NCBI RefSeq assembly: GCF_003334335.1
Contig: NZ_QOWQ01000002.1
Reading direction: 5' to 3' (one strand)
DNA length: 64,000 nt
Source of the DNA: Escherichia coli
Lineage (GTDB): Bacteria > Pseudomonadota > Gammaproteobacteria > Enterobacterales > Enterobacteriaceae
The notes beneath the pieces are model-generated. The model was not told the DNA's origin. It searched no databases and worked only from the letters and a program-made list of their open reading frames with translations. Positions 112 through 32,674 of this stretch are shown in pieces. A program made the position numbers and the translations under genes. The stretch's first letter is position 1. Each line of letters opens with the position of its first letter.

Positions 112-2285
<2,174 letters not shown>

Positions 2286-11608: not shown

Positions 11609-12178
11609 ATGAAACGACTCATTGTAGGCATCAGCGGTGCCAGCGGCGCGATTTATGGCGTGCGCTTATTACAGGTTCTGCGCGATGTCACAGATATCGA
11701 AACGCATCTGGTGATGAGCCAGGCAGCGCGCCAGACCTTATCCCTCGAAACGGATTTTTCTCTGCGCGAAGTGCAGGCATTAGCCGATGTCACGCACGAT
11801 GCGCGCGATATTGCCGCCAGCATCTCTTCCGGTTCTTTCCAGACGCTGGGGATGGTGATTTTACCCTGTTCAATCAAAACCCTTTCCGGCATTGTCCATA
11901 GCTATACTGATGGCTTACTGACCCGTGCGGCAGATGTGGTGCTGAAAGAGCGTCGCCCGTTGGTGCTCTGCGTGCGTGAAACACCATTGCACTTAGGCCA
12001 TCTGCGTTTAATGACTCAGGCGGCAGAAATCGGTGCGGTGATTATGCCTCCCGTTCCGGCGTTTTATCATCGCCCGCAATCCCTTGATGATGTGATAAAT
12101 CAGACGGTTAATCGTGTTCTTGACCAGTTTGCGATAACCCTTCCTGAAGATCTCTTTGCCCGCTGGCAGGGCGCATAA
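11609..12178 (+). CDS. ubiX: Flavin prenyltransferase UbiX
   Basis: 189-aa ORF with flavoprotein N-terminus MKRLIVGISGASGAIYG. Confidence 0.93.
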   Translation: MKRLIVGISGASGAIYGVRLLQVLRDVTDIETHLVMSQAARQTLSLETDFSLREVQALADVTHDARDIAASISSGSFQTLGMVILPCSIKTLSGIVHSYTDGLLTRAADVVLKERRPLVLCVRETPLHLGHLRLMTQAAEIGAVIMPPVPAFYHRPQSLDDVINQTVNRVLDQFAITLPEDLFARWQGA

Positions 12179-12186
12179 CTCCGCTG

Positions 12187-12210
12187 TTGCCCTGTTTCAG
12201 GGCAATTTTG
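12187..12210 (+). terminator. Intrinsic terminator after ubiX
   Basis: ttgccctg/agggcaa stem with tttc loop, followed by TTTTG, 9 nt after the ubiX stop. Confidence 0.7.
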
Positions 12211-12359
12211 CAACCGCGATCAAATCCTCGACATTTTGTTTCTGCCATTCAATCGAAACGCTGCGATTCAACCGCTATACCTGCTATCTTCAACTTCAGG
12301 ACAATAATGCAACGTCTTATTAACATATTTAACGTTGAATGTTACTGTTGTCGTCAAGA

Positions 12360-12376
12360 TGGCATAAGACCTGCAT
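12360..12376 (+). promoter_or_regulatory. Sigma-54 (-24/-12) promoter for argT
   Basis: TGGCATAAGACCTGCAT has GG and GC at exactly the consensus spacing of TGGCACG-N4-TTGCW; about 70 nt upstream of the argT start. Confidence 0.65.
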
Positions 12377-12443
12377 GAAAGAGCCTGCAAACACACAACA
12401 CAATACACAACATAAAAAAGCCATTTTCACTTGAGGGTTATGT

Positions 12444-13226
12444 ATGAAGAAGTCGATTCTCGCTCTGTCTTTGTTAGTCGGTCTCTCCACAGCGGCTTCC
12501 AGCTATGCGGCGCTACCGGAGACGGTACGTATCGGAACCGATACCACCTACGCACCGTTCTCATCGAAAGATGCTAAAGGTGATTTTGTTGGCTTTGATA
12601 TCGATCTCGGTAACGAGATGTGCAAACGGATGCAGGTGAAATGTACCTGGGTTGCCAGTGACTTTGACGCGCTGATCCCCTCACTGAAAGCGAAAAAAAT
12701 CGACGCTATTATTTCGTCGCTTTCCATTACCGATAAACGTCAGCAGGAGATTGCCTTCTCCGACAAGCTGTACGCCGCAGATTCTCGTTTGATTGCGGCC
12801 AAAGGTTCACCGATTCAGCCAACGCTGGATTCACTGAAAGGTAAACATGTTGGTGTGCTGCAGGGATCAACCCAGGAAGCTTACGCTAACGAGACCTGGC
12901 GTAGTAAAGGCGTGGATGTGGTGGCCTATGCCAACCAGGATTTGGTCTATTCCGATCTGGCTGCAGGACGTCTGGATGCTGCGTTACAAGATGAAGTTGC
13001 TGCCAGCGAAGGATTCCTCAAGCAACCTGCTGGTAAAGATTTCGCCTTTGCTGGCTCATCAGTAAAAGACAAAAAATACTTCGGTGATGGCACCGGTGTA
13101 GGGCTACGTAAAGATGATGCTGAACTGACGGCTGCCTTCAATAAGGCGCTTGGCGAGCTGCGTCAGGACGGCACCTACGACAAGATGGCGAAAAAGTATT
13201 TCGACTTTAATGTCTACGGTGACTGA
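12444..13226 (+). CDS. argT: Lysine/arginine/ornithine-binding periplasmic protein
   Basis: 260-aa ORF with signal peptide; close paralogue of the hisJ product immediately downstream. Confidence 0.9.
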
Positions 13227-13446
13227 TACGTCGCTGGGAAGCTGTACCTGATGGAATGATCATCATGGTGCACGCCAGGTTTGTTGCACTATCGTGGTGC
13301 ATTGAAATGCATACTTAAGCATTTTTAATGAAAAATAATACGTCTAACGGGGCGGGATATTTTGCCTTGATGGTCAATTTTATGGCACGATAAGTGTAAC
13401 AAACCTGTAAATATTCCCTATAAAAAGACTGTCAGTTGAGGACATT

Positions 13447-14229
13447 ATGAAAAAACTGGTGCTATCGCTCTCTCTGGTTCTGGCCTTCTCCAGCGCAACT
13501 GCGGCGTTTGCTGCGATTCCGCAAAACATCCGCATCGGTACCGACCCGACCTATGCGCCATTTGAATCAAAAAATTCACAAGGCGAACTGGTTGGCTTCG
13601 ATATCGATCTGGCAAAGGAATTATGCAAACGCATCAATACGCAATGTACGTTTGTCGAAAATCCGCTGGATGCGTTAATCCCGTCCTTAAAAGCGAAGAA
13701 GATTGACGCCATCATGTCATCGCTTTCCATTACGGAAAAACGTCAGCAAGAAATAGCCTTCACCGACAAACTGTACGCTGCCGATTCTCGTTTGGTGGTG
13801 GCGAAAAATTCTGACATTCAGCCGACAGTCGAGTCGCTGAAAGGCAAACGGGTAGGCGTATTGCAGGGCACCACCCAGGAGACGTTCGGTAATGAACATT
13901 GGGCACCAAAAGGCATTGAAATCGTCTCGTATCAGGGGCAGGACAACATTTATTCTGACCTGACTGCCGGACGTATTGATGCCGCGTTCCAGGATGAGGT
14001 CGCTGCCAGCGAAGGTTTCCTCAAACAACCTGTCGGTAAAGATTACAAATTCGGTGGCCCGTCTGTTAAAGATGAAAAACTGTTTGGCGTAGGGACCGGC
14101 ATGGGCCTGCGTAAAGAAGATAACGAACTGCGCGAAGCACTGAACAAAGCCTTTGCCGAAATGCGCGCTGACGGTACTTACGAGAAATTAGCGAAAAAGT
14201 ACTTCGATTTTGATGTTTATGGTGGCTAA
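13447..14229 (+). CDS. hisJ: Histidine-binding periplasmic protein
   Basis: 260-aa ORF with signal peptide; first gene of the hisJQMP block. Confidence 0.9.
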
Positions 14230-31456: not shown

Positions 31457-32674
31457 TTACAGCTGATGATAACCAGAAAGGAAACGCGCGAACTTGCTCA
31501 AAGACAGCTCGATATCATCGACACGCGGTAGCGTGACAATGCGGAAGTGATCCGGCCACGGCCAGTTGAATGCCGTCCCTTGCACCAACAGAACTTTTTC
31601 CTGCAACAGGAAATCCAGCACCATTTTCTGATCGTCGTGAATGTTAAAGCGTTTGGCGTCGATTTTCGGGAACATATACAGCGCACCACGAGGTTTCACG
31701 CAGGAAACGCCCGGAATATCGTTGATCAGTTCCCACGCGCGGTTACGCTGCTCATAAAGACGACCGCCAGGGGTAATAAATTCACTGATGCTCTGATAAC
31801 CACCTAGCGCGGTCTGAATGGCGTGTTGCGCAGGAACGTTAGCACACAGGCGCATTGAAGCCAGCATTTCCAGACCTTCGATGTAGCCTTTGGCGTGTTT
31901 TTTCGGCCCGTTCAACACCATCCACCCCTGACGGAAGCCTGCAACGCGGTACGTTTTCGACAGTCCGTTAAAGGTAATGGTCAGCAGGTCAGGTGCCAGC
32001 GGCGCAATTGAGTGATGCTCAGCGTCGTCGTAGAGAATTTTGTCATAAATTTCATCGGCGAAGATAATGAGATTATGCTGACGTGCAATCTCCACAATCT
32101 CCATTAAAAGCTCTTTGGAATATACCGCGCCGGTTGGGTTATTTGGGTTGATAATAACGATCCCACGCGTACGAGGCGTAATTTTAGCGCGAATATCATC
32201 GAGGTCCGGGAACCAGTCAGAGGATTCATCGCAAAGATAATGCACCGCTTTACCGCTGGAAAGCGAAACCGCCGCGGTCCAGAGTGGGTAATCTGGTGCA
32301 GGAACCAACATTTCGTCCCCGCTGTTCAGCAATGCCTGCATTGCCTGAACGATAAGCTCCGATACACCATTGCCGATGTAAATATCTTCCACGGTAACAT
32401 CACGCATGCCACGAGCCTGGTAGTGCTGCATGATGGCTTTACGCGCGGAGTAAAGACCTTTGGAATCGCAATACCCTTGAGCGGTAGGCAGGTTGCGTAT
32501 CACGTCAACGAGGATTTCATCTGGCGCGTCAAAACCGAACGGGGCTGGGTTGCCGATGTTCAGTTTCAGTACCTTGTTACCTTCTTCTTCCAGGCGTTTT
32601 GCTTCTTTCAGCACCGGACCACGGATGTCATAACAGACATTCTCTAATTTGCTGGATTTTTCAATGGGGGACAT
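31457..32674 (-). CDS. alaA: Glutamate-pyruvate aminotransferase
   Basis: 405-aa ORF of the class-I aminotransferase family; N-terminus MSPIEKSSKLENVCYDIRGP. Confidence 0.9.
   Translation of the reverse strand: MSPIEKSSKLENVCYDIRGPVLKEAKRLEEEGNKVLKLNIGNPAPFGFDAPDEILVDVIRNLPTAQGYCDSKGLYSARKAIMQHYQARGMRDVTVEDIYIGNGVSELIVQAMQALLNSGDEMLVPAPDYPLWTAAVSLSSGKAVHYLCDESSDWFPDLDDIRAKITPRTRGIVIINPNNPTGAVYSKELLMEIVEIARQHNLIIFADEIYDKILYDDAEHHSIAPLAPDLLTITFNGLSKTYRVAGFRQGWMVLNGPKKHAKGYIEGLEMLASMRLCANVPAQHAIQTALGGYQSISEFITPGGRLYEQRNRAWELINDIPGVSCVKPRGALYMFPKIDAKRFNIHDDQKMVLDFLLQEKVLLVQGTAFNWPWPDHFRIVTLPRVDDIELSLSKFARFLSGYHQL

Follow-up and report, generated by a model that had tools for sequence, protein, structure and literature searches.

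Among NtrC-activated sigma-54 promoters, glnAp2 is the archetype. It combines a GG-N10-GC core, a closed complex, activation by phosphorylated NtrC (NtrC-P) when nitrogen is limiting and a neighbouring sigma-70 promoter with two strong NtrC palindromes located about 100-140 bp upstream, and its study established that NtrC can activate from kilobase distances as well as from downstream positions. At other promoters, such as Salmonella glmY/glmZ and the class I/II sigma-54-repressed promoters (chaC, patA, mdfA), a sigma-54 site lies across or right next to a sigma-70 promoter and the two holoenzymes compete. Bona fide sigma-54 ChIP sites can also depart from the core, as in pspA (TTGGCACGCAAATTGTA), pspG (TTGGCATGATTCTTGTA) and hydN (CTGGCATGATTTGTGAA), which carry TGGCAC at -24 and no GC at -12. 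For dhuA (hisJ), a -24/-12-like sequence appears in compilations of the 1980s, and the NtrC site of Salmonella dhuA was reportedly footprinted by Ames and Nikaido in 1985.

The promoter of argT belongs to the first of these groups and has been met several times in genome-scale studies. In E. coli K-12, ATGGCATAAGACCTGCA is the sigma-54 ChIP-seq site OS22, assigned to argT with a signal 12-fold over threshold and a predicted start 58 nt ahead of the gene (PMC4591121), which corresponds to position 12386 of the DNA studied here. The Salmonella site of STM2355 argT, TGGCATAAGACCTGCATG, is the identical 18-mer; it was positive in ChIP-chip, wild-type expression exceeded that of the rpoN mutant 3.5-fold, and argT is counted as one of four Salmonella operons whose sigma-54 control had been demonstrated by experiment (PMC3844500). 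An rpoN- and activator-dependent start about 12 nt past the GC was reported for Salmonella argT, as relayed by papers that cite the original work (PMC3844500, PMC6640053). Genomic SELEX with the RpoN holoenzyme gave a peak in the argT/ubiX spacer both with and without NtrC (PMC8743547). In nitrogen-starved E. coli, NtrC ChIP-seq yielded a signal at argT, a 5.4-fold peak that is the weakest in the table and was added by hand after inspection by eye (PMC4066584). Removal of the GlnK feedback on NtrC raised both argTp-lacZ and argT mRNA 2.4- to 3.2-fold (PMC4958250), and a 2019 paper describes argT as read from a sigma-54 promoter that NtrC activates and hisJQMP from an ArgR-regulated sigma-70 promoter (PMC6640053). 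In EcoCyc, the E. coli argT sigma-54 promoter still had the status of predicted and unconfirmed in 2015, and our literature search found no 5'-end mapping of this start in E. coli.

The DNA analysed here, a window of 64 kb, comes from another E. coli strain and contains the ubiX-argT-hisJQMP locus, in which every gene lies on the + strand. ubiX (11609-12178) matches its NCBIfam family above the curated cut-off. It is followed by the coding sequence of argT (12444-13226), a lysine/arginine/ornithine-binding periplasmic protein recognised by the NCBIfam equivalog NF011586 at 582 bits and annotated as such by RefSeq in E. coli genomes of the same sequence. The hisJ coding sequence (13447-14229; equivalog NF011965, 599 bits) opens hisJQMP, and hisQ, hisM and hisP are each above their NCBIfam curated cut-offs. 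The region 12100-12500 was found in 5426 of 5426 complete genomes, and many E. coli chromosomes in RefSeq match it at 100% identity; the longer region 12150-13460 also has 100% identity to many RefSeq genomes.

Inside the 265-nt ubiX-argT spacer, on the + strand, the 17-mer TGGCATAAGACCTGCAT occupies positions 12360-12376, 68 nt upstream of the argT ATG (12444). The original prediction, made from the letters alone, had read a sigma-54 motif with -24/-12 spacing here. This is borne out by the GG at 12361-12362 and the GC at 12373-12374, the canonical GG-N10-GC arrangement. It had further given the motif to argT, which is supported by the OS22 ChIP-seq site, by the ChIP signal and rpoN dependence of Salmonella STM2355 and by the RpoN SELEX peak, and it had related it to the established nitrogen control through NtrC, in line with the published assignment (PMC3844500, PMC6640053). 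With a probability of roughly 0.93, we consider the element to be argTp, from which argT and, via read-through, argT-hisJQMP are transcribed in a sigma-54-dependent manner in E. coli. The K-12 promoter and its Salmonella Typhimurium counterpart argTr are the same element, with identical 17/18-mer, gene, distance to the ATG and NtrC assignment, and the promoter core of the window (aTGGCATAAGACCTGCAT, 12359-12376, + strand) shows no difference from them. Because the identical sequence is a published sigma-54 ChIP site in both species, this NtrC nitrogen-starvation promoter is already known, besides being real and conserved.

How much of this could be learned from the motif itself was evaluated at two levels. 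The argT motif, TGGCAT-AAGAC-CTGCA, has 2 mismatches over the 11 specified positions of TGGCAC-N5-TTGCW. Counting matches to this loose consensus proved uninformative and was abandoned, since 2 mismatches allow 45 matches in the window against 43.3 expected; the stricter TGGCAY-N5-YTGCW gave 2 matches against 0.46 expected. A position weight matrix (PWM) was then trained on 41 intergenic ChIP-seq sites of Bonocora et al., with argT omitted, whose scores range from 8.3 to 21.6 bits with a median of 16.1. With 14.96 bits, the argT motif has the highest score of the 64-kb window and falls within the range of ChIP-validated sites. At that score, chance would supply about 0.99 matches in 64 kb when both strands are counted, so that the motif by itself is no better than chance for a window of this size; scaled to the 265-nt leader and the correct strand, a matter of arithmetic only, the expectation is about 0.002. 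The case for a real promoter is therefore made by position, conservation and published experiments and not by motif score alone. Other matches of 12.6-14.2 bits at 63378-63394 (+), 53930-53946 (-), 2023-2039 (-), 59050-59066 (-) and 31983-31999 (-) are listed in none of the published sigma-54 ChIP-seq tables and look like the chance background expected at such scores, and the other five top matches of the window are likewise absent from the tables of PMC4591121. The match at 31983 lies within a 405-aa open reading frame on the same strand.

Conservation was assessed over 80 orthologous loci of Enterobacteriaceae, including Escherichia, Salmonella, Citrobacter, Enterobacter, Klebsiella, Raoultella, Kosakonia, Pluralibacter, Franconibacter and others. 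TGGCA-N7-TGC is present in all 80 argT leaders, 67-106 nt ahead of the ATG. In an alignment of 76 sequences, no other 17-mer of the spacer is as well conserved as the argT motif, whose core positions are 99.9% identical against 66% elsewhere. This conservation is the decisive in silico evidence for the argT motif.

Two further blocks of the spacer are conserved. The non-coding block ACCGCGATCAAATCCTCGACATTT (12213-12236, +), which spans about -173 to -150 relative to the predicted start, ranks second with 0.91 identity among the 76 Enterobacteriaceae sequences and matches no NtrC, IHF or Rfam consensus. The block GCAACGTCTTATTAACATATTTAACG (12309-12334, +), at about -77 to -52, includes a candidate sigma-70 -35 element; it occupies the typical position of an IHF bend site, yet fits the IHF consensus poorly. 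A scan of both intergenic spacers for the IHF consensus returned zero sites with at most 1 mismatch, and the block can therefore not be called an IHF site. With a permissive threshold, Rfam matched no family over 12000-13600, so that the conserved blocks are not accounted for by any known cis-RNA family. A 63-aa open reading frame at 12187-12378, which runs across the terminator, the promoters and stretches whose conservation is at the level of DNA, was discarded as a mechanical reading frame.

On the reading as argTp, the sigma-54 holoenzyme binds the GG (12361-12362) and GC (12373-12374) elements and settles into a stable closed complex. When nitrogen is limiting, this complex would be opened by phosphorylated NtrC at the expense of ATP, and transcription would begin near 12386, 58 nt ahead of the ATG. 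This start is predicted from the -12 position (the C of the GC taken as -12), agrees with the distance given for OS22 and delimits a 58-nt argT 5' UTR (12386-12443, +). We infer both the exact E. coli start and the place where activating NtrC binds. The resulting transcript would carry a C/A-rich leader targeted by the small RNA GcvB; the stretch AACACACAACACAATACACAACA (12390-12412, +) is probably the target site of its R1 seed. With NtrC inactive, the bound holoenzyme would occupy positions +6 to +22 of a sigma-70-type promoter and lower sigma-70 output.

This second promoter was brought to attention by Schaefer et al., in whose Table S3 the sigma-54 motif covers +6 to +22 relative to a sigma-70-like argT start, which lies 5 nt upstream of the motif (PMC4551910). 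Read at the positions that this implies, the putative hexamers on the + strand are a -35 TTAACA (12320-12325) and, after a 17-nt spacer, a TG-extended -10 TACTGT (12343-12348), with a start near 12354; this assignment is ours and tentative. The sigma-54 and sigma-70-type starts would then be about 32 nt apart. TTAAC of the -35 is invariant across 15 genera and the -10 is poorly conserved. Like glmY/glmZ and the sigma-54-repressed promoters, argT thus appears to have a sigma-54 site in contact with a sigma-70 promoter for which the holoenzymes compete, but at glmY the promoters overlap fully and share a common start, whereas the argT motif sits just downstream of the sigma-70-type start. Our own sigma-70/terminator scanner, whose thresholds ask for 4/6 matches per hexamer, for that reason picked up neither of the two published sigma-70 promoters, and its negative result was set aside as uninformative.

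The overlap gives rise to a different view of the site, as mainly a repressive docking place where holoenzyme lacking an enhancer blocks the sigma-70 promoter, with productive transcription by sigma-54 playing only a minor part in E. coli. It is compatible with the reading as argTp, and the question is which of the two roles dominates. The position of the motif relative to the sigma-70-like start speaks for such a role, as do the expression of argT in the presence of rpoN, 23% of the level without it, and the reduction of sigma-70 initiation on argT DNA by sigma-54 in vitro (PMC4551910). A repressive-promoter model, in the outline given with the RpoN SELEX data, points the same way (PMC8743547), and so do the missing upstream NtrC palindrome in E. 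coli and the weak argT signal in NtrC ChIP. However, in E. coli both nitrogen limitation and activation of NtrC induce argT, and Salmonella argT depends on rpoN. The -24/-12 core is moreover invariant in 80 species while the sigma-70 -10 is poorly conserved, a difference indicating that it is the sigma-54 promoter itself that is under selection. We therefore regard a mainly repressive site as unlikely.

The same overlap bears on two practical matters. The original prediction took argT transcripts that initiate elsewhere and are unaffected by rpoN deletion as grounds for rejecting the promoter. Since the overlapping sigma-70-type promoter is de-repressed without sigma-54, an rpoN-deletion test of argT transcripts would mislead; transcripts start elsewhere too and rpoN deletion can raise expression, which makes this ground for rejection too simple. 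In addition, argTp has been used as a part in metabolic engineering, and its fragment gave the highest GFP among 12 sigma-54 promoter fragments (PMC7045595). Primer mapping places that fragment at 12188-12385 (198 bp), where it holds the sigma-54 and the sigma-70-type promoters and leaves out the NtrC site near hisJ. Because of the sigma-70-type promoter, the high output that the fragment gave in yeast-extract medium is not creditable to sigma-54 alone, and the strength reported for it as a sigma-54 promoter could be confounded.

With regard to NtrC, this promoter departs from glnAp2: E. coli argTp has no upstream consensus palindrome, and the NtrC ChIP signal is 5.4-fold at argT against 71-fold at glnAp2. 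The upstream search for NtrC enhancer sites recommended with the original prediction came back empty, no match to TGCACC-N5-GGTGCA with up to 3 mismatches being found in the E. coli ubiX-argT spacer (12179-12359). What comes closest to an NtrC site upstream of argT in Escherichia is the terminator-like hairpin of ubiX, TGCCCTGTTTCAGGGCA, which together with the ATTTTG that follows it spans 12188-12210 (+). It is a 17-bp palindrome with the geometry of an NtrC site and 4 mismatches to TGCACC-N5-GGTGCA, and its position, -171 from the motif, is homologous to that of NtrC-like palindromes in Klebsiella and Raoultella. Outside Escherichia, 36 of the 80 loci have upstream palindromes with at most 2 mismatches, at fixed offsets of -202 and/or -171; TGCACCTGCAGGGTGCA of Enterobacter cloacae is one example. 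The segment of about 24 bp that follows the ubiX stop and bears the -202 palindrome elsewhere is missing from Escherichia; a segment with an NtrC-type palindrome after the ubiX stop is found in Enterobacter, Klebsiella, Trabulsiella and Pseudocitrobacter. In many genera, two NtrC-type palindromes lie 31 bp apart directly after the ubiX stop (for instance in loci L027, L028, L047 and L066 of our alignment; window 12157-12204), and Escherichia keeps only the hairpin at the second position. The weak NtrC ChIP-seq peak at argT accords with this arrangement.

As regards the leader of hisJ, the original prediction, which saw no comparable element there, is contradicted by the sequence. On the + strand at 13382-13398, 65 nt ahead of the hisJ ATG, ATGGCACGATAAGTGTA scores 12.7 bits (rank 6 in the window) and has an NtrC palindrome at enhancer distance upstream, 97 nt away. 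This palindrome, TGCACTATCGTGGTGCA at 13285-13301 in the argT-hisJ spacer, is the only match to TGCACC-N5-GGTGCA with at most 1 mismatch in 64 kb and lies 925 nt downstream of the argT motif; with up to 2 mismatches, a palindrome is present in the argT-hisJ spacer of 69 of 76 loci. After coordinate mapping it coincides with NtrC ChIP-seq peak 12 (hisJQMP, 23.7-fold), the strongest published at the locus (PMC4066584), whose coordinates are uncertain by the order of 100 bp. Genomic SELEX with NtrC lists a site in neither the ubiX-argT nor the argT-hisJ spacer; since the near-perfect hisJ palindrome and its strong ChIP peak are also unlisted, we treat that assay as insensitive and not as evidence of absence.

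Compared with the argT motif, the hisJ element is the weaker of the two. GG stands at -24, but GT replaces GC at -12, and the element thus lacks the GG-N10-GC core; GTGTA is found in 6 of 6 Escherichia loci. In this it resembles the pspA, pspG and hydN sites, which differ from it in being bound by sigma-54 in ChIP: the hisJ element is absent among the published E. coli sigma-54 ChIP-seq sites, and hisJ is described as controlled by sigma-70 and ArgR (PMC6640053). RpoD SELEX identified the hisJ sigma-70 promoter TTGAAA-16-TTTAAT, and the A/T-rich conserved block ATGCATACTTAAGCATTTTTAATGAAAAA (13302-13340), which lies after the NtrC palindrome and ahead of the hisJ motif, matches this promoter and published ArgR boxes. 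Compared with Citrobacter and Salmonella, E. coli has lost about 21-27 bp near 13302-13340, a deletion that shifts the NtrC palindrome from -117 to -97.

Other genera retain a better hisJ motif. GC is present at -12 in 40 of 76 other hisJ leaders, and the homologue ATGGCACGATAACTGCA scores 18.4 bits in Citrobacter, Franconibacter and others; allowing T at its end, the range is 17.6-18.5 bits in Citrobacter, Franconibacter, Pseudocitrobacter and others, above argTp. Salmonella subspecies read CCGCA at -12. On these comparative grounds, the hisJ sigma-54 motif is degraded in Escherichia and Salmonella. TGGCAC is nonetheless invariant in 76 of 76 hisJ leaders; as it persists even where the -12 part is lost, a constraint other than sigma-54 may act, possibly an overlapping sigma-70 -10 region. 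In E. coli, the strong NtrC site could serve the activation of a weak hisJ sigma-54 promoter, could enhance argTp from 925 nt downstream or could be vestigial.

The second of these roles amounts to a distinct proposal, namely that the enhancer of argTp in Escherichia is the palindrome at 13285-13301, acting by looping and shared with the hisJ promoter. It is the sole near-consensus NtrC site within the locus, NtrC acts over kilobases and from downstream positions, and Escherichia has no palindrome-bearing segment of about 24 bp after the ubiX stop. NtrC ChIP is also stronger there than at argT, 23.7-fold against 5.4-fold. Yet the 198-bp fragment without that site topped the GFP output of 12 fragments, an observation confounded by its sigma-70 promoter, and argTp-lacZ placed at the lac locus still responded to deletion of glnK, in a construct whose fragment limits are not given (PMC4958250). 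The palindrome stands at -97 from the hisJ sigma-54-like motif, a normal enhancer distance, and hisJ is thus the simpler target; NtrC-P at high levels can also activate enhancer-less promoters from solution. A downstream enhancer of argTp is, like the mainly repressive site, improbable on balance.

That the argT motif is a functionless chance match has a negligible probability: about one match of its score is expected in 64 kb and the loose consensus occurs at its chance rate, but conservation in 80 of 80 loci with invariant GG and GC, the right strand and distance, and direct sigma-54 binding in ChIP and SELEX stand against it, and published sigma-54 ChIP-seq together with conservation refutes it.

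The reading as argTp is supported and recovers a promoter already catalogued; its value is that of a positive control, in which a genuine sigma-54 promoter was located to the base from raw sequence. It also gives a measure of caution: a sigma-54 match of this quality turns up about once per 64 kb by chance, and calling one needs position, conservation or ChIP data.

The sole mildly novel angle, suggested by the comparison of leaders, would be an evolutionary one: in Escherichia, NtrC sites may have been rearranged and the sigma-54 motif of hisJ may have decayed. Taken to its end, it might describe a rewiring in which argTp kept its sigma-54 core and lost its upstream palindrome through the loss of about 24 bp after the ubiX stop, the ancestral hisJ sigma-54 promoter decayed at -12 from CTGCA to GTGTA, and the hisJ palindrome became a shared downstream enhancer. 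We hold this sequence of events to be somewhat more doubtful still than the downstream enhancer on which it draws. If it were true, the argT-hisJ locus of Escherichia would offer an example from nature of an enhancer re-used after the decay of a promoter.
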